From assembly GCF_044647545.1 (NCBI RefSeq), contig NZ_CP172818.1: a stretch of 64,000 bases of DNA. The stretch is one strand, 5' to 3'. The translations under genes and the position numbers were made by a program. The DNA comes from Escherichia coli (lineage in GTDB: Bacteria; Pseudomonadota; Gammaproteobacteria; Enterobacterales; Enterobacteriaceae). The notes beneath the pieces were generated by a model. The model worked only from the letters and a program-made list of their open reading frames with translations. It did not search any database and was not told where the DNA came from. Each line of letters starts with the position of its first letter. Positions within the stretch are counted from its first letter, which is position 1. Below, piece after piece: positions 38,850-64,000 of this stretch.

Positions 38850-38912
38850 TTTCTACTCCTGGACCGCAGGTCTGAAAAGACCTGCGAGTATATCAGAGCT
38901 GAATATATAGCG

Positions 38913-43816: not shown

Positions 43817-43820
43817 TTGA

Positions 43821-44654: not shown

Positions 44655-44717
44655 TTGACTTATACTTGCCTGGGCAATATTATCCCCTGCAACTAATTAC
44701 TTGCCAGGGCAACTAAT
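44655..44717 (+). promoter_or_regulatory. marO promoter-operator with two MarR-binding palindromes
   Basis: -35-like TTGACT followed by TACTTGCCTGGGCAATATTAT (site I) and TTGCCAGGGCAACTAAT (site II) immediately upstream of the GTG start of marR. Confidence 0.8.
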
Positions 44718-45152: not shown

Positions 45153-45172
45153 ACAAAAAAAGAGGTATGACG

Positions 45173-45556
45173 ATGTCCAGACGCAATACTGACGCTATTA
45201 CCATTCATAGCATTTTGGACTGGATCGAGGACAACCTGGAATCGCCACTGTCACTGGAGAAAGTGTCAGAGCGTTCGGGTTACTCCAAATGGCACCTGCA
45301 ACGGATGTTTAAAAAAGAAACCGGTCATTCATTAGGCCAATACATCCGCAGCCGTAAGATGACGGAAATCGCGCAAAAGCTGAAGGAAAGTAACGAGCCG
45401 ATACTCTATCTGGCAGAACGATATGGCTTCGAGTCGCAACAAACTCTGACCCGAACCTTCAAAAATTACTTTGATGTTCCGCCGCATAAATACCGGATGA
45501 CCAATATGCAGGGCGAATCGCGCTTTTTACATCCATTAAATCATTACAACAGCTAG
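45173..45556 (+). CDS. marA: AraC/XylS-family activator MarA, 127 aa
   Basis: Trimmed to [46 protein letters not shown]... (127 aa); ORF track alternative start at 45167. Confidence 0.9.
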
Positions 45557-45587
45557 TTGAAAACGTGACAACGTCACTGAGGCAATC

Positions 45588-45806
45588 ATGAAACCACTTT
45601 TATCCGCAATAGCAGCTGCGCTTATTCTCTTTTCCGCGCAGGGCGTTGCGGAACAAACCACGCAGCAGTTTGTTACTTCCTGTGCCAATGTCGTGGTTGT
45701 TCCCCCATCGCAGGAACAACCACCGTTTGATTTAAATCACATGGGTACTGGCAGTGATAAGTCGGATGCGCTCGGCGTGCCCTATTATAATCAACACGCT
45801 ATGTAG
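45588..45806 (+). CDS. marB: periplasmic protein MarB, 72 aa
   Basis: 72-aa ORF with signal peptide, third gene of mar operon. Confidence 0.85.
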   Translation: MKPLLSAIAAALILFSAQGVAEQTTQQFVTSCANVVVVPPSQEQPPFDLNHMGTGSDKSDALGVPYYNQHAM

Positions 45807-45836
45807 TTTGTTCTGGCCCCGACATATCGGGGCTTA

Positions 45837-46736
45837 TTAACTTCCCACTTTTACCGCTTTACGCCACCGCAAGCCAAATACATTGATATACAGCCCGGTC
45901 ATAATGAGCACCGCACCGAAAAATTGCAGGCCCGTTAAGCGTTCATCCAGCAATAGTGCCGCACTTGCCAGTCCAACTACAGGCACCAGTAACGATAACG
46001 GTGCAACCCGCCAGGTTTCATAGCGTCCCAGTAACGTCCCCCAGATCCCATAACCAACAATTGTCGCCACAAACGCCAGATACATCAGAGACAAGATGGT
46101 GGTCATATCGATAGTAACCAGACTGTGAATCATGGTTGCGGAACCATCGAGAATCAGCGAGGCAACAAAGAAGGGAATGATTGGGATTAATGCGCTCCAG
46201 ATTACCAGCGACATCACCGCCGGACGCGTTGCGTGCGACATGATCTTTTTATTGAAGATGTTGCCACACGCCCAACTAAATGCTGCCGCCAGGGTCAACA
46301 TAAAGCCGAGCATCGCCACATGCTGACCGTTCAGACTATCTTCGATTAACACCAGTACGCCAAAAATCGCTAAGGCGATCCCCGCCAATTGTTTGCCATG
46401 CAGTCGCTCCCCGAAAGTAAACGCGCCAAGCACGATAGTAAAAAACGCCTGTGCCTGTAACACCAGCGAAGCCAGTCCAGCAGGCATACCAAAGTTAATG
46501 GCGCAGAACAGAAAGGCAAACTGCGCAAAACTGATGGTTAATCCATACCCCAGCAGCAAATTCAGTGGTACTTTCGGTCGTGCGACAAAAAAGATAGCCG
46601 GAAAAGCAACCAGCATAAAGCGCAAACCGGCCAACATCAGCGGTGGCATGTTATGAAGCCCCACTTTGATGACCACAAAATTTAGCCCCCATACGACCAC
46701 TACCAGTAGCGCCAACACCCCATCTTTTCGCGACAT
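45837..46736 (-). CDS. eamA: cysteine/O-acetylserine exporter EamA (YdeD), 299 aa
   Basis: ORF track 306 aa; trimmed to MSRKDGVLALLVVVVWGLNF start (299 aa); DMT-superfamily 10-TM protein. Confidence 0.85.
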   Translation of the reverse strand: MSRKDGVLALLVVVVWGLNFVVIKVGLHNMPPLMLAGLRFMLVAFPAIFFVARPKVPLNLLLGYGLTISFAQFAFLFCAINFGMPAGLASLVLQAQAFFTIVLGAFTFGERLHGKQLAGIALAIFGVLVLIEDSLNGQHVAMLGFMLTLAAAFSWACGNIFNKKIMSHATRPAVMSLVIWSALIPIIPFFVASLILDGSATMIHSLVTIDMTTILSLMYLAFVATIVGYGIWGTLLGRYETWRVAPLSLLVPVVGLASAALLLDERLTGLQFFGAVLIMTGLYINVFGLRWRKAVKVGS

Positions 46737-46930
46737 TCTACCGCCTCTGAATTTCATCTTTTGTAAGCAATCAACTTAGCTGAATTTACTTTTCTTTAAC
46801 AGTTGATTCGTTAGTCGCCGATTACGACGGCATTAATGCGCAAATAAGTCGCTATACTTCGGATTTTTGCCATGCTATTCCTTTACATCTCTAAAACAAA
46901 ACATAACGAAACGCACTGCCGGACAGACAA

Positions 46931-48118
46931 ATGAACTTATCCCTACGACGCTCTACCAGCGCCCTTCTTGCCTCGTCGTTGTTATTAACCATCGGACGCG
47001 GCGCTACGCTGCCGTTTATGACCATTTACTTGAGTCGCCAGTACAGCCTGAGTGTCGATCTAATCGGTTATGCGATGACAATTGCGCTCACTATTGGCGT
47101 CGTTTTTAGCCTCGGTTTTGGTATCCTGGCGGATAAGTTCGACAAGAAACGCTATATGTTACTGGCAATTACCGCCTTCGCCAGCGGTTTTATTGCCATT
47201 CCTTTAGTGAATAACGTGACGCTGGTGGTGCTCTTTTTTGCCCTTATTAACTGCGCCTATTCCGTTTTTGCTACCGTGTTGAAAGCCTGGTTTGCCGACA
47301 ATCTTTCCTCCACCAGCAAAACGAAAATCTTCTCAATCAACTACACCATGCTCAACATTGGCTGGACCATCGGTCCGCCGCTCGGCACGCTGTTGGTGAT
47401 GCAGAGCATCAATCTGCCCTTTTGGCTGGCAGCTATCTGTTCCGCGTTTCCCATGCTTTTCATTCAAATTTGGGTAAAGCGCAGCGAGAAAATCATCGCC
47501 ACGGAAACAGGCAGTGCCTGGTCGCCGAAAGTTTTATTACAAGATAAAGCACTGTTGTGGTTTACCTGCTCTGGTTTTCTGGCTTCCTTTGTTAGTGGCG
47601 CATTTGCTTCATGCATTTCACAATATGTGATGGTGATTGCTGATGGGGATTTTGCCGAAAAGGTGGTCGCGGTTGTTCTTCCGGTGAATGCCGCCATGGT
47701 AGTTACGTTGCAATATTCCGTGGGCCGCCGACTTAACCCGGCTAACATCCGCGCGCTGATGACAGCAGGCACCCTCTGTTTCGTCATCGGTCTGGTTGGT
47801 TTTATTTTTTCCGGCAACAGCCTGCTAATGTGGGGTATGTCAGCTGCGGTATTTACTGTCGGTGAAATCATTTATGCGCCGGGCGAGTATATGTTGATTG
47901 ACCATATTGCGCCGCCAGGAATGAAAGCCAGCTATTTTTCCGCCCAGTCTTTAGGCTGGCTTGGTGCTGCGATTAACCCATTAGTGAGTGGCATAGTACT
48001 TACCAGTCTGCCGCCTTTCTCGCTGTTTATCATCTTAGCGTTGGTGATCGTTGCTGCGTGGGTGCTGATGTTAAAAGGAATTCGTGCAAGACCGTGGGGG
48101 CAGCCCGCGCTTTGTTGA
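46931..48118 (+). CDS. ydeE: MFS transporter YdeE, 395 aa
   Basis: 12-TM-type MFS ORF; synteny. Confidence 0.85.
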   Translation: MNLSLRRSTSALLASSLLLTIGRGATLPFMTIYLSRQYSLSVDLIGYAMTIALTIGVVFSLGFGILADKFDKKRYMLLAITAFASGFIAIPLVNNVTLVVLFFALINCAYSVFATVLKAWFADNLSSTSKTKIFSINYTMLNIGWTIGPPLGTLLVMQSINLPFWLAAICSAFPMLFIQIWVKRSEKIIATETGSAWSPKVLLQDKALLWFTCSGFLASFVSGAFASCISQYVMVIADGDFAEKVVAVVLPVNAAMVVTLQYSVGRRLNPANIRALMTAGTLCFVIGLVGFIFSGNSLLMWGMSAAVFTVGEIIYAPGEYMLIDHIAPPGMKASYFSAQSLGWLGAAINPLVSGIVLTSLPPFSLFIILALVIVAAWVLMLKGIRARPWGQPALC

Positions 48119-48244
48119 TTTAAGTCGAACACAATAAAAATTTAATTCAGCCTTCGTTTAGGTTACCTCTGCTAATATCTTTCTCATTGAGATGAAAATT
48201 AAGGTAAGCGAGGAAACACACCACACCATAAACGGAGGCAAATA

Positions 48245-48340
48245 ATGCTGGGTAATATGAATGTTTTTATGGCCGTACTGGGAATAATTTTATTTTCTGG
48301 GTTTCTGGCCGCGTATTTCAGCCACAAATGGGATGACTAA
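48245..48340 (+). CDS. mgtS: small membrane protein MgtS (YneM), 31 aa
   Basis: ATG at 48245: MLGNMNVFMAVLGIILFSGFLAAYFSHKWDD stop; below the ORF-track size cut-off; followed by an intrinsic terminator. Confidence 0.8.
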   Translation: MLGNMNVFMAVLGIILFSGFLAAYFSHKWDD

Positions 48341-48367
48341 TGAACGGAGATAATCCCTCACCTAACC

Positions 48368-48408
48368 GGCCCCTTGTTACAGTTGTGTACAAGGGGCCTG
48401 ATTTTTAT
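48368..48408 (+). terminator. rho-independent terminator of mgtS
   Basis: Stem ggcccctt / aaggggcc with 14-nt loop followed by TGATTTTTA. Confidence 0.6.
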
Positions 48409-48415
48409 GACGGCG

Positions 48416-48441
48416 AAAAAAAACCGCCAGTAAACCGGCGG
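48416..48441 (-). terminator. minus-strand rho-independent terminator (dgcZ transcript or 3-prime end of a small RNA such as MgrR)
   Basis: On minus strand: ccgccggtttactggcgg hairpin followed by TTTTTTTT; lies in the mgtS-dgcZ intergenic region where K-12 encodes the sRNA MgrR (strand and exact ends not verified here). Confidence 0.45.
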
Positions 48442-48558
48442 TGAATGCTTGCATGGATAGATTTGTGTTTTGCTTTTACGCTAACAGGCATTTTCCTGCA
48501 CTGATAACGGATCGTTGACACAGTAGCATCAGTTTTCTCAATGAATGTTAAACGGAGC

Positions 48559-49449
48559 TTAAACTCGGTGAATCACGTTTTGTTCGTCAATAAACATACA
48601 GCGATTTCTTCCGGTTTGCTTACCCTCATACATTGCCCGGTCCGCTCTTCCAATGACCACATCCAGAGGCTCTTCAGGAAATGCGCGACTCACACCTGCT
48701 GTCACGGTAATGTTGATATGCCCTTCAGAATGTGTGATGGCATGGTTATCGACTAACTGGCAAATTCTGATACCTGCACGACATGCTTCTTCATCATTAT
48801 CCGCTTTGACAATAATGATAAATTCTTCGCCCCCGTAGCGATAAACCGTTTCGTAATCACGCGTCCAACTGGCTAAGTAAGTTGCCAGGGTGCGTAATAC
48901 TACATCGCCGATTAAATGCCCGTAGGTATCATTAACCAATTTAAATCGGTCAATATCCAACAACATTAAATAAAGATTCAGAGGCTCAGCGTTGCGTAAC
49001 TGATGATCAAAGGATTCATCAAGAACCCGACGACCCGGCAATCCCGTCAAAACATCCATATTGCTACGGATCGTCAGCAAATAAATTTTGTAATCGGTTA
49101 ATGCCGCAGTAAAAGAAAGCAACCCTTCCTGAAAGGCGTCGAAATGCGCGTCCTGCCAGTGATTTTCAACAATAGCCAACATTAATTCCCGACCACAGTT
49201 ATGCATATGTTGATGGGCAGAATCCATTAGCCGAACGTAAGGTAATTCATCGTTATCGAGTGGCCCCAGATGATCAATCCACCGACCAAACTGGCACAGT
49301 CCATAAGAATGGTTATCCGTTATTTCTGGCTTACTGGCATCTCTCGCGACCACGCTGTGAAACATACTTACCAGCCACTGGTAGTGGGCATCGATAGCCT
49401 TATTGAGATTTAACAAGATGGCATCAATTTCCGTTGTCTTCTTGATCAT
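48559..49449 (-). CDS. dgcZ: zinc-regulated diguanylate cyclase DgcZ (YdeH), 296 aa
   Basis: Trimmed to MIKKTTEIDAILLNL start; C-terminal GGDEF domain (RYGGEEFIIIV) and N-terminal zinc-sensory region. Confidence 0.9.
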   Translation of the reverse strand: MIKKTTEIDAILLNLNKAIDAHYQWLVSMFHSVVARDASKPEITDNHSYGLCQFGRWIDHLGPLDNDELPYVRLMDSAHQHMHNCGRELMLAIVENHWQDAHFDAFQEGLLSFTAALTDYKIYLLTIRSNMDVLTGLPGRRVLDESFDHQLRNAEPLNLYLMLLDIDRFKLVNDTYGHLIGDVVLRTLATYLASWTRDYETVYRYGGEEFIIIVKADNDEEACRAGIRICQLVDNHAITHSEGHINITVTAGVSRAFPEEPLDVVIGRADRAMYEGKQTGRNRCMFIDEQNVIHRV

Positions 49450-49703
49450 TGCCACTCCTTTTTCACAGTTCCTTGTGCGCGCTATTCTAACGAGAGAAAA
49501 GCAAAATTACGTCAATATTTTCATAGAAATCCGAAGTTATGAGCCATCTCTGAGATAACATTGTGATTTAAAACAAAATCAGTAGATAAAAAAGTGTTTA
49601 ATTCTGTAAATTAACTCTGCATTATCGCAATTAAAAGGATGACAAATAGCATAACCCAATACCCTAATGGCCCAGTAGTTCAGGCCATCAGGCTAATTTA
49701 TTT

Positions 49704-50096
49704 TTATTTCTGCAACTGAGTGACCCGAACGACGGCCGGCGCGCTTTTCTTATCCAGACTGCCGCTAATGTTGATCATCTGGTCCGGCTGAACTTCTCGT
49801 CCATCAAAGACGGCCGCAGGAATAACAACATTAATTTCACCGCTCTTATCGCGAAAAACGTAACGGTCCTCTCCTTTGTGAGAAATCAAATTACCGCGTA
49901 GTGAAACCGAAGCGCCATCGTGCATGGTTTTTGCGAAATCAACGGTCATTTTTTTTGCATCGTCGGTTCCGCGATAGCCATCTTCTATTGCATGAGGCGG
50001 CGGTGGCGCTGCATCCTGTTTTAAACCGCCCGGGTCATCTGCCAACGCATAAGGCATGACAAGAAAACTTGCTAATACAATGGCCTGAAATTTCAT
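49704..50096 (-). CDS. ydeI: periplasmic OB-fold (BOF) protein YdeI, 130 aa
   Basis: Signal peptide plus about 110-aa mature domain; synteny. Confidence 0.8.
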
Positions 50097-50459
50097 ACTG
50101 ACTCCTTAATTGCGTTTGGTTTGACTTATTAAGTCTGGTTGCTATTTTTATAATTGACAATTAAGATTACTTCCAATTGTTATAAGGCATTTAAAATCAG
50201 GTAACTAGCTGTCAAATATTCAGAGAATTTAACTCACTAAGGTTAAGAAGAAGATTAAAGAGTCTTAAACATATTTCAGAATAATCAGATTTATAAATTT
50301 GAAAATTATTATAACGGAAGGGTATACAAAAAAAGATTTTGCTGGCGACTGCGAAACGGCATTCGCATTAGCGGTGAAGTTTGCCCTCGCCCAGCTGCTG
50401 CAATTACTGCTATAACGAGGCTGGTCTGGCGATAAATCCAGGCCAGCCATTGGTGGTGT

Positions 50460-52505
50460 TTATACGTTCAAGCCACGATGTTGCAGCATCGGCATAATCT
50501 GAGGTGCCTTACCGCGCCATTGTCGATACAGGCGTTCCAGATCCTCGCTGTTACCTCTGGAAAGGATCGCCTCGCGAAAACGCAGCCCATTTTCACGCGT
50601 TAATCCGCCCTGCTCAACAAACCACTGATAACCATCATCGGCCAACATTTGCGTCCACAGATAAGCGTAATAACCCGCGGCATATCCGCCACCAAAAATA
50701 TGGGCGAAATAACTGCTGCGATAGCGTGGCGGTATAGCGGGAAGATCCATATTTTCCGCCACCAGCGCCCGCAATTCGAAATCATCGACATCCTGCATTG
50801 CTTCGTTTTCTTCCAGGCAATGCCAGCGCATATCGAGAAGTGCGGCGCTAAGCAGTTCGCTCATCTCATACCCTTTATTGAACAGGCTGGCATTACGCAT
50901 TTTCTGTTGCAGTTCGTCAGGCATTGCTGCCCCGCTCTGATAATGCCGGGCGTAGCGAGCGAATACCTGCGGATGCGTTGCCCAGTGTTCGTTGATTTGC
51001 GACGGAAATTCGACAAAATCACGCGGCGTGTTGGTGCCGGAAAGCGTAGCATAACGCTGGCAGGCAAACAGGCCGTGCAGCGTATGACCAAATTCATGGA
51101 ATAAGGTTATTACATCATCCCAGAGTAACAACGCAGGCTCCCCAGCAGCGGGTTTCTGATAATTGCAGACGTTATAAATTACCGGATGCGTTTCATTAAG
51201 CGTTGATTGCTCAACAAAATTGCCCATCCATGCACCGCCGCTTTTTGAATCACGGGCGAAGAAATCACCGTAAAATAACGCCAGCCCCACGCCATTATGA
51301 TCAAAAATTTCCCACACCCGAACGTCAGGATGGTAGACAGGAATATCAAAACGTTCGACAAACTTAATACCGAAGAGCTGATTCGCAGTCCAGAATACAC
51401 CTTCATTCAACACCGTGTTTAATTCAAAATATGGCTTGAGCTGCGATTCATCGAGATCGAATTTCTCACGTCTTACCTGCTCGGCATAAAATGCCCAGTC
51501 CCACGGCTGCGCGCTAAACCCGCCCTGCTGCTTATCGATAACCGCCTGTATGGAGGCTAATTCATCGCTCGCACGTTGACGCGCCGCTGGAACAATTTCC
51601 CGCATAAAGTTGAGCGCTGCTTCTGGCGTTTTTGCCATCTGATCGGCGATTTTCCATGCGGCATAATGAGGAAAACCAAGCAGTTTCGCCTGCTGCGCGC
51701 GGATCTCCACCAGACGTTGAATGATAGCGCGGGTATCATTGGCATCATTTTTTTCCGCTCGCATCCAGCCCGCAGTAAACAGTTTTTCACGCGTCGCGCG
51801 ATCGCACAGTTCAGCAAGCGCTGGTTGTTGGGTGGTATTCAGCAGCGGAATCAGCCATTTGTTATACAGACCTTTCTCGCGAGCCGCCTCTGCCGCCAGC
51901 GCAATCTCTTGCTCACTCATTCCTGCCAGCTGCGCGATATCGTTCACAACCAGACCGCCGGATTTATTTGCTGCCAGTAACCGCTGGTTAAACTGGCTGG
52001 TCAGGGTCGCAGCTTCTGTATTCAGTACTTTTAATTTTGCTTTATCAGCTTGCTTAAGTTTGGCTCCGGCAAGGACAAAACGTTGATGAATCACCTCCAC
52101 CAGGCGGATGGATTCACTATCAAGCCCCAGGGATTCACGGCGCTGCCAGACAGCATCTACCCGCGCGAATAATTCCCCGTTCAGATAGATATCATTCGCA
52201 AGTTCCGCCAGTTCAGCGGAAAACTGTTCATCAAGACGCTGTAATTCATCATTGGTATGCGCCGCAGTCATCGCAAAAAAGACGCTGGTAACGCGGGTAA
52301 GTAATTCTCCGCTTTGTTCCAGTGCCAGAATAGTATTGTTGAAATCAGGTGTTTGCGGGTTAAGCGCGATGGCAGCAATTTCTGCCCGCTTTTGCTGCAT
52401 TCCCTCATCGAATGCCGGGCGATAGTGATGATTGGCAATTTGATCAAAATGGGGAGCCAGATACGGCAGTGTGCTTTGCACAAGGAAAGGATTCATTGTT
52501 GTCAT
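50460..52505 (-). CDS. dcp: dipeptidyl carboxypeptidase Dcp (M3 metallopeptidase), 681 aa
   Basis: ORF track 703 aa; trimmed to MTTMNPFLVQ start (681 aa); zinc-binding HEFGH motif present. Confidence 0.9.
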   Translation of the reverse strand: MTTMNPFLVQSTLPYLAPHFDQIANHHYRPAFDEGMQQKRAEIAAIALNPQTPDFNNTILALEQSGELLTRVTSVFFAMTAAHTNDELQRLDEQFSAELAELANDIYLNGELFARVDAVWQRRESLGLDSESIRLVEVIHQRFVLAGAKLKQADKAKLKVLNTEAATLTSQFNQRLLAANKSGGLVVNDIAQLAGMSEQEIALAAEAAREKGLYNKWLIPLLNTTQQPALAELCDRATREKLFTAGWMRAEKNDANDTRAIIQRLVEIRAQQAKLLGFPHYAAWKIADQMAKTPEAALNFMREIVPAARQRASDELASIQAVIDKQQGGFSAQPWDWAFYAEQVRREKFDLDESQLKPYFELNTVLNEGVFWTANQLFGIKFVERFDIPVYHPDVRVWEIFDHNGVGLALFYGDFFARDSKSGGAWMGNFVEQSTLNETHPVIYNVCNYQKPAAGEPALLLWDDVITLFHEFGHTLHGLFACQRYATLSGTNTPRDFVEFPSQINEHWATHPQVFARYARHYQSGAAMPDELQQKMRNASLFNKGYEMSELLSAALLDMRWHCLEENEAMQDVDDFELRALVAENMDLPAIPPRYRSSYFAHIFGGGYAAGYYAYLWTQMLADDGYQWFVEQGGLTRENGLRFREAILSRGNSEDLERLYRQWRGKAPQIMPMLQHRGLNV

Positions 52506-52641
52506 TTTCTTCTCCTGAACGCGAGGTGTTCCATAGCGTAGGCTTACTGATAACGGAGTGCAATCTTGCAAACCAGTATTACCCGCTCTTAAGCATCACG
52601 TGCTATGTTATTGACACACAAAAGCGTTGAGGAACAGTGAG

Positions 52642-53388
52642 ATGATCGTTTTAGTAACTGGAGCAACGGCAGGTTTTGGTGAATGCATTACTCGTCGTTT
52701 TATTCAACAAGGGCATAAAGTTATCGCCACTGGCCGTCGCCAGGAGCGGTTGCAGGAGTTAAAAGACGAACTGGGAGATAATCTGTATATCGCCCAACTG
52801 GACGTTCGCAACCGCGCCGCTATTGAAGAGATGCTGGCATCGCTTCCTGCCGAGTGGTGCAATATTGATATCCTGGTAAATAATGCCGGTCTGGCGTTGG
52901 GCATGGAGCCTGCGCATAAAGCCAGCGTTGAAGACTGGGAAACGATGATTGATACCAACAACAAAGGCCTGGTATATATGACGCGCGCCGTCTTACCGGG
53001 TATGGTTGAACGTAATCATGGTCATATTATTAACATTGGCTCAACGGCAGGCAGCTGGCCGTATGCCGGTGGTAACGTTTACGGTGCGACGAAAGCGTTT
53101 GTTCGTCAGTTTAGCCTGAATCTGCGTACGGACCTGCATGGTACGGCGGTGCGCGTCACCGACATCGAACCGGGTCTGGTGGGTGGCACCGAGTTTTCCA
53201 ATGTCCGCTTTAAAGGCGATGACGGTAAAGCGGAAAAAACCTATCAAAATACCGTTGCATTGACGCCAGAAGATGTCAGCGAAGCCGTCTGGTGGGTGTC
53301 AACGCTGCCTGCTCACGTCAATATCAATACCCTGGAAATGATGCCGGTTACCCAAAGCTATGCCGGACTGAATGTCCACCGTCAGTAA
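52642..53388 (+). CDS. ydfG: NADP-dependent 3-hydroxy acid dehydrogenase YdfG (SDR family), 248 aa
   Basis: Trimmed to MIVLVTGATAGFG (Rossmann TGxxxGxG) start; SDR active-site region present. Confidence 0.9.
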   Translation: MIVLVTGATAGFGECITRRFIQQGHKVIATGRRQERLQELKDELGDNLYIAQLDVRNRAAIEEMLASLPAEWCNIDILVNNAGLALGMEPAHKASVEDWETMIDTNNKGLVYMTRAVLPGMVERNHGHIINIGSTAGSWPYAGGNVYGATKAFVRQFSLNLRTDLHGTAVRVTDIEPGLVGGTEFSNVRFKGDDGKAEKTYQNTVALTPEDVSEAVWWVSTLPAHVNINTLEMMPVTQSYAGLNVHRQ

Positions 53389-53476
53389 TTTTTATACCCG
53401 GCGTAACTGCCGGGTTATTGCTTGTCACAAAAAAGTGGTAGACTCATGCAGTTAACTCACTCACAAGCAAGAACGA

Positions 53477-54163
53477 ATGACCGTCGAAACGCAACTTAAT
53501 CCCACACAGCCTGTCAATCAGCAGATTTATCGTATTCTTCGTCGCGACATTGTCCATTGCCTGATTGCTCCAGGCACACCGTTGTCGGAAAAAGAAGTTT
53601 CTGTTCGTTTCAATGTGTCACGCCAGCCGGTTCGTGAAGCCTTTATTAAACTGGCGGAAAACGGCCTGATTCAAATTCGTCCGCAGCGTGGCAGCTACGT
53701 CAACAAAATTTCCATGGCCCAGGTGCGCAACGGCAGTTTTATCCGTCAGGCCATTGAGTGCGCGGTGGCGCGTCGGGCGGCGAGCATGATTACCGAAAGC
53801 CAGTGCTACCAACTGGAACAAAATCTTCACCAGCAACGCATTGCCATTGAGCGCAAGCAACTGGATGATTTTTTTGAACTTGATGACAACTTCCATCAAC
53901 TCCTGACCCAGATTGCCGACTGTCAACTGGCGTGGGAAACCATTGAGAACCTGAAAGCGACCGTTGATCGCGTGCGCTATATGAGTTTCGACCACGTTTC
54001 TCCACCAGAAATGCTGTTACGCCAGCATCTTGAGATTTTCTCTGCCCTGCAAAAACGTGATGGCGATGCGGTAGAACGTGCAATGACGCAACATTTGCAG
54101 GAAATCAGCGAATCTGTGCGCCAGATCCGCCAGGAAAACAGCGACTGGTTTAGCGAAGAGTAA
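53477..54163 (+). CDS. rspR: GntR-family transcriptional regulator RspR (YdfH), 228 aa
   Basis: N-terminal GntR-type HTH and FCD-type C-terminal domain; synteny. Confidence 0.8.
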
Positions 54164-54339
54164 TTCATTTCCTCTCATCCCATCCGGGGTGAGAGTCTTT
54201 TCCCCCGACTTATGGCTCATGCATGCATCAAAAAAGATGTGAGCTTGATCAAAAACAAAAAATATTTCACTCGACAGGAGTATTTATATTGCGCCCGTTA
54301 CGTGGGCTTCGACTGTAAATCAGAAAGGAGAAAACACCT

Positions 54340-54543
54340 ATGACGACCTACGATCGTAACCGTAACGCAATCACCACTGGCAGCCGTGTTATGGTTAGCG
54401 GCACCGGTCACACTGGCAAGATCCTGTCGATTGATACTGAAGGTCTGACCGCTGAGCAAATCCGCCGCGGAAAAACCGTAGTTGTTGAAGGTTGTGAAGA
54501 GAAACTGGCACCTCTGGACCTGATTCGTCTCGGCATGAACTAA
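54340..54543 (+). CDS. ydfZ: putative selenium-binding protein YdfZ, 67 aa
   Basis: 67-aa ORF with good RBS (aggagaaaacacctATG), followed by terminator. Confidence 0.8.
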
Positions 54544-54551
54544 GCGTGTGA

Positions 54552-54580
54552 ATGCCGCCGATGGCGGCATTGCTTTTTTT
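54552..54580. terminator. bidirectional rho-independent terminator between convergent ydfZ and ydfI
   Basis: Hairpin atgccgcc-gat-ggcggcat followed by TTTTTTT on plus strand. Confidence 0.6.
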
Positions 54581-56039
54581 ACTTCACGGAATATTTCGCC
54601 ACGGTCGCTTTCGCACCATGCGCTAATAAAGACAAGTACGCTTCCGTCACTTTTGCAGTAAACAAGCTATTGTCTGGCAAATCATCACCAAAGATCGCCT
54701 TAATCGCCAGCAATGACTGGACGCGCGCTTTCCCTTCGGCACTACTTTGTACAGCCTTCTGAATAACAGGTAACAGTGGGTCACTGATTTCTATCGGATT
54801 TCCCTGTTCATCAACACCACCGACATAACGCATCCAACCCGCGACGCCTAGCGCCAGCAGATCGAACTTGCTGTCATGCGCCAGATGCCAGCGAACAGAA
54901 TCCAACATCCGCTGTGGCAATTTCTGGCTGCCATCCATCGCAATCTGCCAGGTTCGATGACGTAGCGCCGGGTTGCTATAGCGTTCAATTAATCGGTTAG
55001 CGTAATCTTGCAAATCAACGCCCTGCACTTTCAACGTCGGCGCTTGTTCATGCAACATCAAGGCATACGCTGCATGACGATAATGTTCATCTTCCATGCA
55101 GTCATTAATGTGCTGATATCCGGCAAGATAACCCAGATACGCCAGGAATGAATGACTGCCGTTGAGCATGCGCAACTTCATCTCTTCATAAGGCAGCACA
55201 TCACTAACCAGTTCGGCTCCCGCTTTTTCCCATTCCGGACGTCCGGCAACAAAGTTATCTTCTATTACCCACTGGCGGAAAGGTTCACAGGCAACGCCAG
55301 CAGGATCGCGCACACCGGTAAGTTGTTCGATTTTCGCCAGCGTATCCTCTGTCACTGCGGGCACAATACGGTCCACCATTGTTGATGGGAAAGTCACGTT
55401 TTCTTCGATCCATTGTGCCAGTTTTACATCAACAGCTTGCGCGTAGGAAGTGACAACGTCACGCATAACATGACCGTTTTCTGGCATGTTGTCACATGAC
55501 ATGACGGTAAATGCGGGAAGTCCTGCCGCTTTACGGCGAGCCAGCGCCTCGACAATCACCCCTATTGCAGTTTTCGGCTGGTGGGGATTTTGTACATCGG
55601 CAACGACCATCGGGTGATCGGGCATTAACTGTCCGGTCGCCGGAGAGTGGAAATACCCTTTTTCGGTGATTGTCAGAGAGACAATCGCGATTTGCGGTTC
55701 ACACATCGCAGCCAACACGGTTTCTAAGCCATCAATCTGTACGTGCAAGGCTTTTTTAACGACGCCAACGACGCGAGCCGTCCACGCATCGGCCGACATT
55801 TCCGCAACGGTATAAAGATTATCTTGCTGTTGTAAATCGGCAATTTGCTGTTCGCCGCCGATTAAATTGACCTCATAATATCCCCAGTCACTGAAATGTT
55901 CCGTAGCAAGAATATCGGCATACACACCCTGATGCGCACGGTGAAATGCACCAAAGCCTAAATGAACAATTCTTGGGGCCAGGTTATTACGATCATAAAC
56001 AGGGAGCGTCGCTTTTGCTGATAACAAATTATTTCCCAT
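54579..56039 (-). CDS. ydfI: mannitol-dehydrogenase-family oxidoreductase YdfI, 486 aa
   Basis: 486-aa ORF with N-terminal Rossmann-type fold; co-oriented with ydfJ transporter. Confidence 0.85.
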
Positions 56040-56128
56040 AACAATTCCTTAAATTTAAATATGGCAAGCTGCATGTTTTGTTATATGAATAAAAAATCCC
56101 CTCTCCGGTAAGAGAAGGGATGGAGGAT

Positions 56129-57412
56129 TTACAGACTTCTTGAAGGTTGCGCTGCTGTTACAACACGCGGTTGATCTTCCGCGGCATCTTCCAGTGCACT
56201 TAAATCACGGTCTTTCACTTCTGGCATTTTCAGCGCAGAGATTAAACCAATCACTGAATATGCCATGATCATAATGGCGATCGGATACCAGGATTCCGTC
56301 ATGGTGCAGAAAATACCCGCCAGGATAGGACCAAAACCGGAAGCGATAAGACCACCAATTTCTTTAGAAATAGCCATCCGGGTAAAGCGGTTTTTACAGC
56401 CGAACATTTCTGCCATGGTAATGTTTTCCAGAGCAAATAATCCCAGCACCGCACAGTTATGAATCACAATCAGTGCAACCATAATGGTGCTCGGGGCATA
56501 GCTTTTATCTACGATGATAGAAAGCATTGGCCACGCCAGCACAATCGCAGAGGTATTCATAATAATATACGGGATCCGGCGACCTATTTTATCGGATAAC
56601 CAACCAAGGAACGGAATGGTCATAAAGCCGAGAATCGAACTGATCATCAATGCATCTGTTGGAATTGCTTTGTTAAACAATAACGTCTGCACTAAATAGC
56701 CTGCAAGGAAAGTCTGAATTAAACCTGAGTTACCAGCCTGACCAAAACGCAGCCCTGTTGCCAGCCAGAAGGATTTGCTCTGGAACATGCTACCAGCAGG
56801 TGCAGGTTTTGCTGTCGGTTGATTGCTGTCGTTAACCTTCTCAAAGACCGGGCTTTCTTTCAGATTCATACGCAACCAGATAGCAAAGACCATCACGACA
56901 ACGCTCGCCAGGAACGGTATACGCCATCCCCACGCCAACAGTTCCTCTTTACTGAGAATGAAGAACATAAAGGCCCAGATTGCCGTTGCGCTCAAGGTTC
57001 CGCAGTTAGTCCCCATAGCAACAAATGAGGAGATAATTCCGCGCTTACCTTTTGGCGCATATTCCGCCAGCATCGTACCGGCACCGGAAATTTCCGCACC
57101 TGCACCCAATCCCTGAATAATACGCAGCGTCACCAGCAAGATGGGTGCAAAAACACCAATCTGTGCATAGGTCGGTAACACACCAATTAAGGTGGTACAG
57201 ATCCCCATCATGGTGATGGTAATAAAGAGTACTTTTTTACGCCCTATTCTGTCGCCCATTTTGCCGAAAATAAATGCTCCGACAATACGCGCCACATAAC
57301 CTGCACCGTAGGTTCCCATTGCCAGAATTAACGCCATTGCCGTTGATGATTCAGGAAAAAATATTTCATGAAACACTAACGCTGCGCCGAGCGAATATAA
57401 CTGGAAATCCAT
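56129..57412 (-). CDS. ydfJ: MFS metabolite:H+ symporter YdfJ, apparently N-terminally truncated (427 aa)
   Basis: MFS signature GKMGDRIGRKK occurs at residue about 50 of the ORF, implying TM1 and upstream sequence are missing; the 5-prime end abuts the prophage boundary. Confidence 0.7.
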   Translation of the reverse strand: MDFQLYSLGAALVFHEIFFPESSTAMALILAMGTYGAGYVARIVGAFIFGKMGDRIGRKKVLFITITMMGICTTLIGVLPTYAQIGVFAPILLVTLRIIQGLGAGAEISGAGTMLAEYAPKGKRGIISSFVAMGTNCGTLSATAIWAFMFFILSKEELLAWGWRIPFLASVVVMVFAIWLRMNLKESPVFEKVNDSNQPTAKPAPAGSMFQSKSFWLATGLRFGQAGNSGLIQTFLAGYLVQTLLFNKAIPTDALMISSILGFMTIPFLGWLSDKIGRRIPYIIMNTSAIVLAWPMLSIIVDKSYAPSTIMVALIVIHNCAVLGLFALENITMAEMFGCKNRFTRMAISKEIGGLIASGFGPILAGIFCTMTESWYPIAIMIMAYSVIGLISALKMPEVKDRDLSALEDAAEDQPRVVTAAQPSRSL

Positions 57413-58198
57413 AATTCACAGGTGTTTTTTCCCATCCTGTGGTTTCCTTGGCGTTTTCTAGGTTTTTTCAGATAGTTGCATTTTTTAAAAAGCATCCTAA
57501 GTTCGATCTCAGTGTCTATCTGGGGCCTATTTCTGTCCCATATATGCCCCAAAAAAAACTCCCCAACAGATAAGTAGTTTTTTCATGGATTTATGCGTAA
57601 AATCAAGAACGGCTGGAAATCATTCAATACTCACACTATCGAAAAATTTACCAGCCAACCGCAGCACGTTCTTGCATAAGGCGTGTCTGCGGTTTTTCAA
57701 CTATTCAGATACATCACTCCCATCACATTCATTCCTCCGCATCAAAGGCATATAGGCTATATCACCTTGATATTTTTCTTTTTCAGATAAAAACTGTTAT
57801 CTATGTATACTTTTAAACCCAATCCGTGTAGAGTCTCTGCATAAGATAGTTTACAGTTGCCGCTTCAGCTTGCGCCATAAACCGCCTGATTTTTGCTGCC
57901 ACCTGTTAGCATTCCTGTATACCTGAAACGACAATGTTTATCTACGAACTTTAAGAACACCCAAGATAAAAATTGTCAACTATATCATATATAACACATT
58001 ACTAATTCGAGGCTATATGAACAGCATACTGATAATCACATCTCTCCTTATCATATTCAGCATTTTTAGTCATGCCCTAATAAAATTAGGGATTGGCATA
58101 TCCAATAACCCAGACAAAACCGATGTATAAGTCAACATATCCTGAATCAGACATACAATATCGCAATGAAAATCAATAATATTTTAAGGAATATCTTC

Positions 58199-58432
58199 AT
58201 GAAATCAAAAGACACCCTAAAGTGGTTCCCTGCGCAGCTTCCTGAAGTAAGAATTATCCTAGGGGATGCTGTAGTGGAAGTAGCAAAACAGGGAAGACCT
58301 ATCAATACCAGAACATTGCTTGATTACATTGAAGGAAACATAAAGAAAAAATCATGGCTGGATAACAAAGAATTATTACAAACAGCGATATCAGTTCTTA
58401 AAGACAACCAAAATTTAAATGGTAAAATGTAA
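58199..58432 (+). CDS. ydfK: Qin prophage protein YdfK, 77 aa
   Basis: Trimmed to MKSKDTLKWFPAQLPEVRIILGDAVVEVAKQGRPINTRTLLDYIEGNIKKK... start. Confidence 0.75.
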   Translation: MKSKDTLKWFPAQLPEVRIILGDAVVEVAKQGRPINTRTLLDYIEGNIKKKSWLDNKELLQTAISVLKDNQNLNGKM

Positions 58433-58748
58433 TATAATAAACTTACTTTTTTATCATTTTTCCACTTTAACAACATTTTGCTCCACTTTTCCACGACCAA
58501 ACAACTTGAAATCTGGTTAAAATAACACGCAACACTATTCTTCTTCCTTGAGTCCGCCCGGAACTCGAAAAACAAACCGAGTTAAAGCCTTTTTTCACAA
58601 AATCGATTTTGGGTCTCACCAAAATTACGGGGTTGCATACGCATTCGTTTATTTTCGAACGTGTACATACAAATATGCACAAAAATAATCATAATTATTT
58701 TCTGAGATGCATTATGATATGAACACCAATTTCGTATAGAGTCTCACT

Positions 58749-59339
58749 ATGTCTCGAATTTTTGCTTACTGTCGGATATCAACGCTGGATCAGACCACCG
58801 AAAATCAACGCCGGGAAATCGAAAGTGCAGGTTTTAAAATCAAACCTCAGCAAATAATCGAAGAACACATTAGCGGCTCAGCAGCAACCAGTGAGCGTCC
58901 TGGTTTTAACCGGTTGCTTGCTCGCCTGAAATGTGGTGATCAATTGATTGTGACAAAACTGGATCGCCTTGGTTGTAATGCAATGGATATCAGGAAAACA
59001 GTGGAACAACTGACCGAAACAGGTATCAGAGTGCATTGCTTAGCATTGGGTGGCATTGACCTGACCAGTCCAACAGGAAAAATGATGATGCAAGTAATTT
59101 CAGCAGTCGCTGAATTTGAACGAGACCTTTTACTTGAACGCACTCATTCCGGGATAGTAAGAGCCCGCGGCGCAGGGAAACGTTTTGGTCGACCACCTGT
59201 GTTAAATGAAGAACAGAAACAGGTGGTATTCGAACGAATTAAGTCAGGTGTAAGTATAAGTGCCATTGCCCGGGAATTCAAAACCTCGCGGCAAACCATT
59301 TTAAGAGCCAAAGCAAAACTTCAGACACCTGACATATAA
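58749..59339 (+). CDS. pinQ: serine DNA invertase PinQ (Hin/Gin/Pin family), 196 aa
   Basis: Resolvase/invertase N-terminal catalytic domain (YCRISTLDQ with catalytic Ser) and C-terminal HTH. Confidence 0.9.
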
Positions 59340-59436
59340 AAAATAATCTCGGTGTGAGATGCTTTACGTCTTCCAAGCCCCCTTCCTTGCCGTAAATGGA
59401 AAGATACATCTAATTATAGAATTTATATGTTTTACC

Positions 59437-60011
59437 CTACGGCAGTGCTGGCCATTCAATATCCTGTGCAGTTGACGTATCAACACGGTTCAGCAATACC
59501 CGATACTTTTTCCATGCTTCCAGCAACGGGGTTTCTTCCTCCGTTGCAATTTCCAGATCTGCAGCATCCTGAAGCGGCGCAATATGCTCACTGGCTACCT
59601 GCATCAGGTTGTTTTTTTTTCTTCCGCTTCCCGTATCCGAAACAGTTTTTCTGCTTCCTCATCATTCACCCAGGATACGCCGTCCCACTTCTGATACTCC
59701 CCTGCTGGCGACAACCAGGTGACATTCTCTGGTAGCGGTCCGAGTTCAGAAATAAACAATGCGTCCCCCGACGCCACGTCATAGACCGTTTTACCACGAT
59801 GGTCTTCAACAATATTCCACGATTCATTTTCACTGTTAAAAACTGCCACAAAGCCAGCAGGAATTTCCGGTGGGGCGATATCTGTAGAATTAGCTGGCAG
59901 CCCTGTATGAGGTGGAATATATGCGTCACCTTCACCAATAAACTCATTAGTTCCGGCCAGCAGGTTATAAATTTTTACGGTACGTGATTGTTCACTCATT
60001 CTGAATGCCAT
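59437..60011 (-). pseudogene. tfaQ: tail-fibre assembly protein TfaQ, disrupted by a -1 frameshift in an A9 homopolymer
   Basis: ORF 59604-60011 (135 aa) ends ...EEKKTT stop inside a run of nine A (coding strand; T-run at 59612-59620). Shifting frame by one A continues as [58 protein letters not shown] to a stop at 59437-59439, giving the expected 191-aa protein. Confidence 0.8.
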
Positions 60012-60934
60012 TATGCAAGCCTCACAATATAATTAAATGCGATGTTTTTAACGGTGTTTTCCGCGTTACCAGCAGCGTTAACGGTGATGGTGTGTCCATG
60101 TGAACCAATCTTAACAGAGTGCGTATGAGCGCCAATACCAACAGTGTGTGCATGTGCCCCAGCACTTGTAGCGGTACCTGATACTGAGTGGGTATGTGCG
60201 CCAGAAGAAGGCACAGTTCCATTCCCCACCACCGTGCCACTTGATGAACCATCCAGCCAGTCGAAATTCATACCGCCACTGTTTGGTCTCCTTAATGGAA
60301 CGGTATGAGTATGTGCGCCAGCACTATTTGCAGTACCAGATACATTGTGGGTATGTGCACCTGTGTTATTCGTTGATTTAGTACCGTAATCAAACGACGA
60401 TGTGGTTTTCGTACCCAAATCCGTACTGGATGCGCTGGCACTGTGGGTGTGCGATTTAATGCCATCCTGTTCCTGAGACAATACGGCCCGACCACTGGCG
60501 GGTTTGCCCTTGATTGTCCAGCCGCGCATATCTGGAATAACACCAGAAGGATAGGCAATAGCCAGTTTCGGATATGCTGCCTTATCAAACGTCTGCCCCT
60601 GCATGATTGCATAACCTGCAGGTGGCGTATCTGATGGCCACGGGATTGGTGCACCGACTGGATAAAACTCTGCAGGAGGATGAGCCGAGGTGTAAAGCTG
60701 CGCCCACGGCGACCAGTTTGCGTCGGTCGTATCCCGTCGTGAACGAATAAATGCCGGAGCATGAGCACCGCTTGTACCACTCCAGCCGATGAGTAACTCA
60801 CCTTCGCCAACGGCTGTCATCCCTTTCAGGTGAATGATATTTCCATACGCTGTTGGATATCCGTTGTTATACACCTCGTATAACTCAAGACCTGCTGCCC
60901 CCTGCGTATTGTCTGTCAGCGCGGTTATATTCAC
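60011..60934 (-). CDS. stfQ: side tail fibre protein remnant StfQ (YdfN), 307 aa
   Basis: Repeated GAHTH(S/T)V motifs typical of phage side-tail-fibre C-terminal regions; stop overlaps tfaQ start by 1 nt. Confidence 0.75.
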
Positions 60935-61454
60935 TCAGCAACCCCGGTATCAGTTCATCCAGCGCGGCTGCTTTGTTCATGGCTTTGATAATATCCCGTT
61001 TCAGGAAATCAACATGTCGGTTTTCCAGTTCCGGAAAACGCCGCTGCACCGACAGGGGGAGCCCGTCGAGAATACTGGCAATTTCACCTGCGATCCGCGA
61101 CAACACGAAAGTACAGAATGCGGTTTCCACCACTTCAGCGGAGTCTCTGGCATTCTTCAGTTCCTGTGCGTCGGCCTGCGCACGCGTAAGTCGATGGCGT
61201 TCGTACTCAATAGTTCCTGGCTGGAGATCTGCCTCGCTGGCCTGCCGCAGTTCTTCAACCTCCCGGCGCAGCTTTTCGTTCTCAATTTCAGCATCCCTTT
61301 CGGCATACCATTTTATGACGGCGGCAGAGTCATAAAGCACCTCATTACCCTTGCCACCGCCTCGCAGAACGGGCATTCCCTGTTCCTGCCAGTTCTGAAT
61401 GGTACGGATACTCGCACCGAAAATGTCAGCCAGCTGCTTTTTGTTGACTTCCAT
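60885..61454 (-). CDS. nohQ: phage terminase small subunit (Nu1-like) remnant NohQ, 189 aa
   Basis: N-terminus [29 protein letters not shown] is a Nu1-type HTH; 3-prime end overlaps stfQ by 50 nt in a different frame, consistent with a deletion-fusion junction. Confidence 0.7.
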
Positions 61455-61841
61455 TGTTCATTCCACGGACAAAAACAGAGAAAGGAAACGACAGAGGCCA
61501 AAAAGCTCGCTTTCAGCACCTGTCGTTTCCTTTCTTTCAGAGGGTATTTTAAATAAAAACATTAAGTTATGACGAAGAAGAACGGAAACGCCTTAAACCG
61601 GAAATTTTTCATAAATAGCGAAAACCCGCGAGGTCGCCGCCCCGTAACCTGTCGGATCGCCGGAAAGGACCCGCAAAATGATAATAATTATCATCTGCAT
61701 GTCACAACGTGCATCTACGCCATCAAACCACGTCAAATAATCAATTATGACGCAGGTATCATATTAATTGATCTGCATCAACTTAACGTAAAAACAACTT
61801 CAGACAATACAAATCAGCGACACTAAATACGGGACAACCTC

Positions 61842-62075
61842 ATGTCAACGAAGAACAGAACCCGCAGAACAACAATCCGCAACATCCGCTTTCCTAACCA
61901 AATGATTGAACAAATTAACATCGCTCTTGATCAAAAAGGGTCCGGGAATTTCTCAGCCTGGGTCATTGAAGCCTGCCGCCGGAGACTGTGCTCAGAAAAA
62001 AGAGTTTCTCCTGAAGCAAACAAAGAAAAGAGTGACATTACTGAATTGCTCAGAAAACAGATCAGACCAGATTGA
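61842..62075 (+). CDS. ynfO: Qin prophage protein YnfO, 77 aa
   Basis: 77-aa basic ORF (ribbon-helix-helix-like N-terminus); synteny. Confidence 0.65.
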   Translation: MSTKNRTRRTTIRNIRFPNQMIEQINIALDQKGSGNFSAWVIEACRRRLCSEKRVSPEANKEKSDITELLRKQIRPD

Positions 62076-62116
62076 AGCAATTTAGATAATCGTGCAGACT
62101 ACGCCCCTCATATCAC

Positions 62117-62542
62117 ATGGAAGGTACCACAATGGCTCAGGTTGCCATTTTTAAACAAATATTCGATAAAGTGCGAAATAATTTAAACTATCACTGGTTT
62201 TATTCTGAACTAAAACGTCACAATGTCTCACATTACATTTACTATTTAGCTACAGAGAATATTCATCTTGTTCTTGAAAACGATAATACGGTTTTAATAA
62301 AAGGACAGGGTAAGGTTGTAAATGTAAGATTTTCAAAAAATAAATGCCTTATAGAAGCCACCTTAAAAGGATTCAAATCAGGAGAGTTATCATTTTACGA
62401 ATACAGGAAAAATCTTGCTACAGCAGGGGTTTTCAGATGGATTACAAATATCCACGAAAACAAAAGGTATTACTATACCTTTGATAATTCATTACTCTTT
62501 ACTGAGAACATTCAGAACACTACACAAATATTTCCGCACTAA
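62117..62542 (+). CDS. ydfO: Qin prophage protein YdfO (DUF1398), start uncertain (62117 or 62132)
   Basis: 141-aa ORF; alternative start [11 protein letters not shown]; synteny. Confidence 0.65.
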
Positions 62543-62731
62543 ATCATAACGTCCGGTTTCTCTCACTCCTGAGCCGGACTGCATTGGTTTAATAAAAACC
62601 ATCGACAATCGAGATTTATATCTATTCGGTAATGTTTAAATATAACAAAACCCCGTAAAAACGAGGTTTATGGGTAATTTGTATTGTTGAATAGCATCTG
62701 ATGAGAAATTGATGCTAATACTATAAACATG

Positions 62732-62905
62732 CTAGATTAAATCAATCTTGATATCATAGCTTTCAAGACCAGTCATTTTTTCCCGTGCAGTAAACTGGAT
62801 ACTGGTAACTTCTTTCCCGGTCTTTTTCTTAAGCTCAATGATTTTTTTTGTTATATATTCAGAAATATCTGCTTCTGTTTTTGTTTTTAACTCTTCAATG
62901 TTCAT
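62732..62905 (-). CDS. gnsB: GnsB, 57 aa (overexpression suppressor of secG/fabA mutations)
   Basis: Trimmed to MNIEELKTKTEADISEYITKKIIELKKKTGKEVTSIQFTAREKMTGLESYDIKIDLI. Confidence 0.8.
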   Translation of the reverse strand: MNIEELKTKTEADISEYITKKIIELKKKTGKEVTSIQFTAREKMTGLESYDIKIDLI

Positions 62906-63077
62906 CATTTCCTCTTTTAGTCTGTTATGACTGTCCTGGTACACAGTAGTGTCAATTATATGGAGCAAACGTATAAAAGATAAGATGAAACATCGCAATA
63001 ATCAACATACGACGGTCTAAATTTCACACAAACAGATAAAGATGATTATCATTTATTATCAATGCATTAGAATCAAA

Positions 63078-63347
63078 TCAATTCAAGAGTCTCATTGCTG
63101 CTTCCAGAATTTCTTCTGAAGTTACATGTCGATCCGCTGCTACATAAATGACTTTATGATCTCCGGTCAGAGATGGAAACCCTGCAGCCATTACAGTGAG
63201 GTGTGTTGTTTCGCCATTTGGATATTCACGCATGATGGTGTTAACTCCGGTCATCACTGGCACTACCATTGCTGGTTCAGAGTTAAAAAAAACTATTATT
63301 TTTTTCATAATGTTACCGTAATATGTGAGTATCCATCGACTAGACAC
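63078..63347 (-). CDS. ynfN: Qin prophage small protein YnfN; true start probably internal (about 51 aa, MREYPNGETTHL...)
   Basis: ORF track 89 aa; located immediately downstream of cspI as in K-12; start not resolvable from sequence alone. Confidence 0.55.
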   Translation of the reverse strand: MSSRWILTYYGNIMKKIIVFFNSEPAMVVPVMTGVNTIMREYPNGETTHLTVMAAGFPSLTGDHKVIYVAADRHVTSEEILEAAMRLLN

Positions 63348-63579
63348 TAAGCAAAAAAGCTCCCGAAGGAGCCTTCATTTTCACTTTCTTAAATCTAACG
63401 ACAGATGGCTAACATTTAAGTATTGTGAAATATTATCAAATGTAATCATCATTGATTTACAAAAGATACATTTTGCCCCGAAAGGATTTCTGTCAGAAAC
63501 ATCAAAAGATGATGTTCTATACTGAGAACCATGGCAACACGGGCATCTAAAGTGAATATGGTTTGTAATATTTTCTACC

Positions 63580-63792
63580 TCAAAGTGCCACTACATGAAC
63601 AGCTGCAGGGCCTTTAGGTCCGTTCTCAATACCAAATTCGACTTCCTGATTCTCAGTTAACGTTTTGAAATCGTTGCTCTGAATAGCTGAGAAATGCACA
63701 AACACATCTTTGCTACCATCTTTCGGCGTGATGAAACCAAAACCTTTTTCAGGGTTAAACCATTTCACTAAACCAGTCATTTTGTTAGACAT
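63580..63792 (-). CDS. cspI: cold-shock protein CspI, 70 aa
   Basis: [38 protein letters not shown]... with RNP1 motif KGFGFI and RNP2-like VFVHF; long AT-rich 5-prime leader upstream (63793-64000) as typical for csp genes. Confidence 0.9.
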
Positions 63793-64000
63793 CATTATTA
63801 CCTTTTGAAGAAGTTAGCCCTTGGGCAGAATGGTCCGAAAAAAAAATATCAGAGAGAAAAACCAACAAGGAAATCTCAAGAGGTACAAATAATAAAATTA
63901 TAACAATGACTGCTTCAGATAATTTTGTAACAAACCAGAACACCATTAACGCATGATTAACCAACCATAGCAAGGATTACTTTTGTAAAGAAAAACACAC

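Follow-up and report, generated by a model that had tools for sequence, protein, structure and literature searches.

In the model of North et al. (2019), as outlined in PMC9608196, the N-terminal domain of a tail-fibre assembly (Tfa) protein binds the fibre and a conserved, helical C-terminal domain drives trimerisation. The C-terminal 66 residues of the Tfa considered here align with Mu gpU/TfaMu (PDB 5YVQ), and the break in its gene falls at the domain border as it is outlined there. In this comparison, made by sequence alone, only the C-terminal region is detectably similar.

Two E. coli modules resemble the locus more closely. K-12 tfaQ (191 aa; WP_000885611.1 in strain AG100) shares its position, the convergent pinQ, the stfQ' and nohA genes upstream and, once the reading frame is repaired, its length. 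The last 184 nt of the two genes are identical apart from two substitutions and a missing C. In contrast, the first ~400 nt are only ~88% identical to K-12 tfaQ and 99.9% identical to a plasmid-borne tfa, and the window gene lacks one base and is split into open reading frames (ORFs) of 135 and 55 aa. The plasmid-borne counterpart belongs to a phage-like plasmid module (a phage tail protein plus the 205-aa WP_001523080.1) that matches at 99.9% over 1,030 nt, comprising the fibre tip and two thirds of tfa. The plasmid tfa continues in frame into its own, far more divergent C-terminal third (…EEKKARLIQEA…), whereas the window gene switches to the K-12 C-terminus.

A comparable lesion concerns the side tail fibres of lambda. 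Hendrix and Duda are said to have described in 1992 a frameshift in stf of lambda PaPa, where one missing base reportedly inactivates the side-tail-fibre module and has no further effect; PMC9608196 cites the paper as its reference 18. For phage HK630, the annotated description is [quoted passage not shown]. The present case resembles lambda PaPa in that a single missing base inactivates a lambdoid side-tail-fibre module; it differs in that the lambda lesion affects stf rather than tfa and lies away from any recombination joint.

Nine A or T residues are the run length at which slippage-prone behaviour and counter-selection show in many bacterial genomes (PMC1088944). An interrupted tssM gene of Citrobacter is rescued at a poly-A tract, at 20–25% (PMC4256274), and a deletion in human DMD made A9 from A4GA5, in a report whose title speaks of dystrophin rescue by transcriptional slippage (PMC12946587). 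As these cases are presented, the window gene shares with Citrobacter tssM1 (A11) and human DMD c.2281delG (A4GA5 to A9) a stop just past a poly-A run, and with the latter an A9 created by losing the interrupting base. Both have demonstrated products, with function in tssM1, whereas the window run is known from sequence, is not conserved and has no partner function.

The tfaQ position and its divided reading frame

The window, meaning the whole 64-kb stretch analysed and not the tfa gene alone, carries the gene order ydfJ'-ynfT-ydfK-pinQ-tfaQ-stfQ'-nohA-ynfO-ydfO-gnsB-ynfN-cspI, the same as K-12 AG100 and BS-01. Since this is the order of K-12 Qin, the split gene occupies the tfaQ position. 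The features around it are:

60934..60011, minus strand: stfQ', a 307-aa, N-terminally truncated ORF with Collar and Phage_fiber domains
60011..59604, minus strand: upstream tfa ORF, 135 aa, ATG at 60011, ending ...EAEEKKTT and a stop; it covers the N-terminal part of Tfa and reaches the first residues of its conserved C-terminal region
59620..59612, minus (coding) strand: A9 run, read as T9 on the plus strand
59606..59604, minus strand: premature TGA stop of the upstream tfa ORF, 6 nt past the A9 run
59604..59437, minus strand: downstream tfa ORF of 55 aa, encoding the conserved C-terminal region of Tfa, with TAG at 59439..59437
58749..59339, plus strand: pinQ, serine invertase gene (Resolvase and HTH_7 domains), convergent with tfaQ

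The stf ORF overlaps the tfa start codon by 1 nt, so that tfa lies directly downstream of the tail-fibre gene. Both tfa ORFs exceed the curated cut-off of Pfam family PF02413 (Caudo_TAP; 22.1 bits): the upstream ORF matches profile positions 1–73 (E 6.9e-10, 39.6 bits) and the downstream ORF positions 76–130 (E 3.4e-25, 89.1 bits). To judge from these matches, the two ORFs are consecutive halves of one Caudo_TAP/Tfa domain. No single uninterrupted frame holding both Tfa parts is present, the gene being split at the A9 run, and it thus counts as a pseudogene, a disrupted representative of its family. Adding one base within the run yields an uninterrupted Tfa of 191 aa (...EEKKNNLMQ...), residues 126–191 of which align with residues 112–174 of Mu gpU (PDB 5yvq_B, E 5.8e-08).

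Much of the first-pass annotation of this gene agrees with these results. It had called the gene tfaQ, which fits the Qin gene order as to position and PF02413 as to family; it had placed a one-base frameshift at the A9 run, as the two ORFs covering consecutive parts of PF02413 confirm; and it had held that an extra base restores a 191-aa protein with a typical Tfa C-terminus, which the repaired frame and its alignment with Mu gpU uphold. It was mistaken in having the ORF terminate inside the A run. The upstream ORF closes with the codons GAA GCG GAA GAA AAA AAA ACA ACC TGA (minus strand), and it actually ends at the TGA, 6 nt past the run.

The stop of the upstream ORF overlaps the ATG of the 55-aa ORF in a TGATG at 59606..59602. 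Such an overlap could permit termination–reinitiation, and with it separate expression of the conserved C-terminal domain.

The neighbouring Qin ORFs (pinQ, nohA, ynfO, ydfO, gnsB, ynfN and cspI) are all intact, and the prophage is without head or tail genes. An invertible segment driven by pinQ, of the Mu G, P1 C or e14 P type, was also considered. Window positions 58600–61100 have a single stf-tfa cassette and are free of inverted repeats, which rules such a segment out and leaves nothing for the pinQ invertase to invert.

Two other A runs lie near this locus. The ynfN gene (63078–63347, minus strand) is an intact 89-aa ORF with an A8 run (plus strand, ~63285–63292); in K-12 the run is A7 and the gene is annotated as frameshifted, while the A8 state is common to the window and ECONIH1, an ST648-lineage genome. 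A further A9 at 63838–63846, upstream of cspI, is the only other 9-nt A/T run outside two artefact-like stretches described below, so that the 64 kb hold only two A/T runs of at least 9 nt outside those stretches. It reads A8 in K-12 and BS-01 and is the same in ECONIH1 as in the window, which makes it a natural polymorphism.

A chimeric tfa and the lost C

Although it occupies the tfaQ position, the gene is not near-identical to K-12 tfaQ along its full length; only the last ~184 nt are K-12-type. Window positions 60643..59614 are instead 99.9% identical to E. coli phage-like plasmids of ~47–49 kb, e.g., NZ_CP024865.1 (1,030 nt), with one mismatch and no indels across the 1,030 nt of the imported patch. 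Plasmids of this donor type carry phage tail genes together with a plasmid RepA. The cassette is also 99.0–99.2% identical to prophages in some swine E. coli isolates. A plasmid of this type is present in ECONIH1 itself (99.4% identity), so that a donor would plausibly be available in such a strain. From the A run to the stop codon, the tfa sequence is of the K-12 tfaQ type. The parts of the chimera are:

60643..59621, minus strand: imported tail-fibre cassette, comprising the Stf C-terminal tip and the first ~133 codons of tfa (its N-terminal two thirds)
59627..59620, minus strand: crossover interval GCGGAAGA, 8 nt common to both parents in a four-way alignment
59620..59549, minus strand: K-12-type tfaQ segment, identical to K-12 save for the missing C; not in ECONIH1

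In the same four-way alignment, donor-specific bases end at 59628 and K-12-specific ones begin at 59619. Strong divergence of the parental tfa genes past GCGGAAGA makes this block the last site where homology could support an exchange. The other joint lies in stf at CCGTGGCCATCAGATAC, the first identical block of the homologous region, and the frame is kept across it; stfQ' is accordingly chimeric as well, changing at CCGTGGCCATCAGATAC from K-12/BS-01-like sequence on its 5' side to the plasmid type. The two joints have shared blocks of 17 nt and 8 nt, and the imported patch is exactly coextensive with the region over which the two modules can be aligned. If the N-terminal domain of Tfa binds the fibre, as in the outlined model, the patch would move the fibre tip together with the part of the chaperone that recognises the fibre, and would end at the domain border.

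The tfa gene is, then, a chimera with two joints, and its allele is unique in the collections searched. The chimera-specific pattern, allowing any run length, is absent from species-representative genomes, viral contigs and metagenomes. Among complete E. coli genomes, the best match across the joint is 93.4% over 181 nt. A search with the repaired 191-aa protein returned cluster representatives of at most 91% identity, where closer members may hide within the 90% clusters, and exact-protein look-ups of the 135-aa, 307-aa and 55-aa products found none on record.

The missing base lies close to the downstream joint. K-12 and BS-01 read GAAGAAACAAAAAACAACC where the window reads GAAGAAAAAAAAACAACC, and in both of them the site of the A9 run is AAACAAAAAA (alignment). 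The lost C belongs between 59618 and 59617, where K-12 has AAA-C-AAAAAA; this is 2–3 nt beyond the shared 8-nt block. Neither the chimera nor the proximity of the lesion to the joint had been noticed in the first-pass annotation.

Complete E. coli genomes were queried with a 67-nt A9 version and a 68-nt A10 version of the site. The 3' segment of tfa occurs at 5,751 places in 3,397 of these genomes, none of which gives an exact full-length match to either query. The best full-length match is 98.5% for both alike, equivalent to one gap or mismatch, as an interrupted run predicts. The interrupted form AAACAAAAAA is present in 59 viral contigs, as against none for A9 and none for A10, and an exact-pattern scan found the A9 pattern missing from metagenome contigs and from contigs of species-representative genomes as well. 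One genome record differs by a single base somewhere in 69 nt at the site. Since all comparable copies are interrupted and none is A9 or A10, the lesion is the loss of a C between A3 and A6. This loss fused A3 and A6 into A9, and the homopolymer is therefore a product of the lesion. An intact state of A10, as first proposed, is contradicted by K-12 tfaQ, which reads GAAGAAACAAAAAAC, and by the 5,751 genomic places and 59 viral contigs that agree with the interruption; the comparison with a reference tfaQ that had been suggested at that stage thus points to a missing C and not to a change in homopolymer length.

The ST648 backbone and the quality of the record

By nucleotide identity, the chromosomal backbone of the window is that of the ST648 lineage. 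Positions 38000–50000 are 100% identical to ECONIH1, MS6198, strain ST648 and other genomes of that lineage. Against ECONIH1, positions 49207–59548 show no mismatches and one 2-nt gap, and positions 62595–64000 match its gnsB-cspI region at 99.93% identity without gaps. Between the equivalents of 59548 and 62595, ECONIH1 carries 24 kb of prophage head and tail genes, and its tfa is only a 111-bp remnant that stops at window position 59548. In place of this block, the window has at 59549–62594 a ~3-kb Qin remnant resembling K-12 and BS-01, composed in order of 72 nt of K-12-type tfaQ, the plasmid-type patch, a K-12/BS-01-type 5' part of stfQ', nohA, ynfO and ydfO. The combination of ST648 flanks with this remnant occurs in no complete E. 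coli genome.

Homopolymer tracts of at least 6 nt agree between the window and ECONIH1 in all cases (60 of 60), so the sequence is not generally noisy. Where homopolymers differ from K-12 in the stretch aligned with ECONIH1, the differences are common to ECONIH1 and are thus natural polymorphisms. The few other indels relative to ECONIH1 fall in pseudogenes or intergenic DNA, and those at 16860 and 19985 match K-12. A generally noisy assembly with homopolymer errors was rejected on the strength of the agreeing tracts and the shared differences from K-12.

A deletion of 4.6 kb in the ydeT fimbrial usher region, at ~16372, is common to the window and K-12; ECONIH1 has there a full usher, a chaperone and IS2, although the flanks in the window are nevertheless ECONIH1-type at the base level. 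This deletion and the K-12-like Qin remnant raised the idea that the window might be a K-12-guided consensus. That idea was rejected, since the window contains ECONIH1-specific structure absent from K-12, namely a deletion in ydeJ (50335) and, at 37160–37490, the 5' part of a diguanylate cyclase gene.

The best overall match to positions 52000–64000 is BS-01 (NZ_CP172816.1, 1574350–1586338). Within this 12-kb stretch of BS-01, ydfK, pinQ, the tail fibre gene and ynfN carry frameshift annotations, as does ynfN in K-12 AG100. The extra frameshifts suggest that the BS-01 assembly may be error-prone, and hence a poor reference for questions that turn on single bases.

Two stretches of the window do look artefactual. 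Positions 6990–9230 have a non-biological appearance, with G10 (6996–7005), G48 (7175–7222) and G114 (7249–7362), followed by ~1.7 kb that is almost free of C and includes a degraded copy of the ydeM region (7659–8055; 78% identity, 100 gap columns). A gradient of single-C dropouts at 9060–9220 leads back to normal sequence. The whole stretch stands for 10.3 kb (pqqL-yddB-yddA-ydeM-ydeN) found in ECONIH1 and K-12, and a glycine-rich 130-aa "ORF" at 7011–7403 is a by-product. In the second stretch, 37159–37486, a gradient of single-G, then T and C, dropouts relative to ECONIH1 runs into A13, A28, A10, A16 and A17; it stands for 492 nt of a sensor diguanylate cyclase gene, and register is regained at 37487. 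The homopolymer anomalies to which the first-pass annotation appealed therefore exist as gross poly-G and poly-A junk, but they do not extend to ordinary tracts. Its lean towards a sequencing error retains some force; with the agreement of the ordinary tracts and the sharing of K-12 differences by ECONIH1, that lean is weaker than stated.

Candidate explanations for the missing base

A real, strain-private pseudogene deletion at a recombination joint, in a defective Qin prophage of an ST648-lineage E. coli, is the explanation that we regard as probable, by a modest measure. The split, the missing C, the chimera, its two joints, its uniqueness and the quality of the backbone are direct results of the analysis; a cellular rather than a sequencing origin of the deletion, and its link to the recombination event, are what we infer.

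Under this explanation, a tail-fibre specificity cassette of ~1 kb (the receptor-binding tip of Stf and the N-terminal part of Tfa), of the type found on ~47-kb phage-like plasmids that ST648 strains often harbour, would have replaced the resident stfQ'-tfaQ sequence by an exchange across the entire stretch of homology between the two modules. The downstream joint would thereby have been forced into the last 8 shared nt (GCGGAAGA), at the border where the C-terminal regions of Tfa diverge. A joint confined to so short a homology is a plausible place for imprecise resolution. The C of AAACAAAAAA, 2–3 nt beyond it, would have been lost at or soon after recombination, leaving A9 and a shifted frame. 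Translation would then stop after 135 aa, so that the N-terminal part that binds the fibre would lack the conserved helical C-terminal part, while the last 55 codons would persist as a separate ORF with its ATG overlapping the stop. With the N-terminus of stfQ' missing and no head or tail genes present, there would be no selection against the lesion, and so no expected phenotype. That the neighbouring Qin ORFs are all intact speaks for a real deletion as well. Against it stands that the allele is known from one assembly, with no second copy in the collections searched. So understood, the case would be best described as ordinary pseudogene decay in a cryptic prophage, with a unique allele and no new mechanism.

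A sequencing, assembly or polishing artefact is a lesser yet substantial possibility. The gene in the cell would then be in frame (AAACAAAAAA), base-calling or consensus having missed the C in an A-rich tract of 10 nt within a repeated gene family; in a wider version, mis-mapped plasmid reads would have written the plasmid-type patch onto the chromosomal copy and left an indel at its edge. The two gross artefacts lie in this same window (the G48/G114 stretch and the G-dropout gradient ending in A13–A28), and the base missing from tfaQ is a single G on the plus strand, the same kind of dropout as at 37159–37300. These junk stretches are, however, dense local gradients at least 22 kb away and not scattered single errors. 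Outside them the sequence shows essentially no errors when compared with an independent ST648 genome, down to its homopolymers of at least 6 nt, and isolated private indels were not seen in ~50 kb of backbone. The wider version gains from the extent of the patch, which coincides exactly with the alignable region and places each joint in an outermost block of identity, the pattern expected of over-polishing with plasmid reads. Moreover, tfa is multi-copy, with a median of two places per genome, which is where short-read polishing is weakest, and no collection searched for the chimera or for A9 contains a second copy of the allele. On the other side, the patch shows a single mismatch and no indel over its length, and joint blocks of 17 and 8 nt are shorter than a de Bruijn graph mis-join would require.

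Recoding at the run is very unlikely to account for the gene. It would have RNA polymerase add an A, or ribosomes slip by –1 on A_AAA_AAA, such that truncated and some full-length Tfa are both made and the arrangement is retained. The heptamer A_AAA_AAA does lie in the zero frame ahead of the TGA, and A9 falls within the slippage-prone lengths of at least nine A/T (PMC1088944). A transcript with one extra A and a –1 ribosomal shift would give the same in-frame product, the 191-aa protein with ...EEKKNNLMQ.... Conservation is nonetheless zero: at none of the 5,751 genomic places is there a full-length match to A9 or A10, and the viral contigs contain neither; and with a truncated partner fibre gene in a defective prophage, the product would have nothing to assemble. 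The fold of 59660..59540, where a downstream stimulatory RNA structure was sought, is no better than that of shuffled sequence (z = –0.92). A programmed frameshift was rejected on this result and on the lack of conservation of the run. Some slippage product is physically plausible if tfa is transcribed, but it would be incidental. A related reading, in which the deletion is partly self-healing, we likewise hold to be highly improbable: a minority of full-length chimeric Tfa would accompany the N-domain and a reinitiated C-terminal domain, amounting to a split or dosage-tuned chaperone that is retained.

A phase-variable contingency switch, with reversible changes of run length at replication turning the chaperone on and off, is scarcely credible: a 9-nt homopolymer is mutable by replication slippage, as is generally known (also PMC1088944), but all other copies are interrupted (AAACAAAAAA) and thus stable, run-length polymorphism is not seen across thousands of genomes, and slippage cannot restore the wild-type sequence to a run born of the loss of a C.

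For annotation, the locus is best entered as a frameshifted, chimeric tfa pseudogene whose proper repair is a C and not an extra A. The two artefactual stretches in the window also serve as a quality flag, and single-base calls that decide a frame in this record deserve a read check. The finding carries little biological weight in itself, being one more decayed cryptic-prophage gene whose partner fibre gene was already truncated. It does illustrate the joint transfer of a fibre tip and the matching N-terminal part of its chaperone between one type of phage-like plasmid and a prophage remnant in the chromosome.
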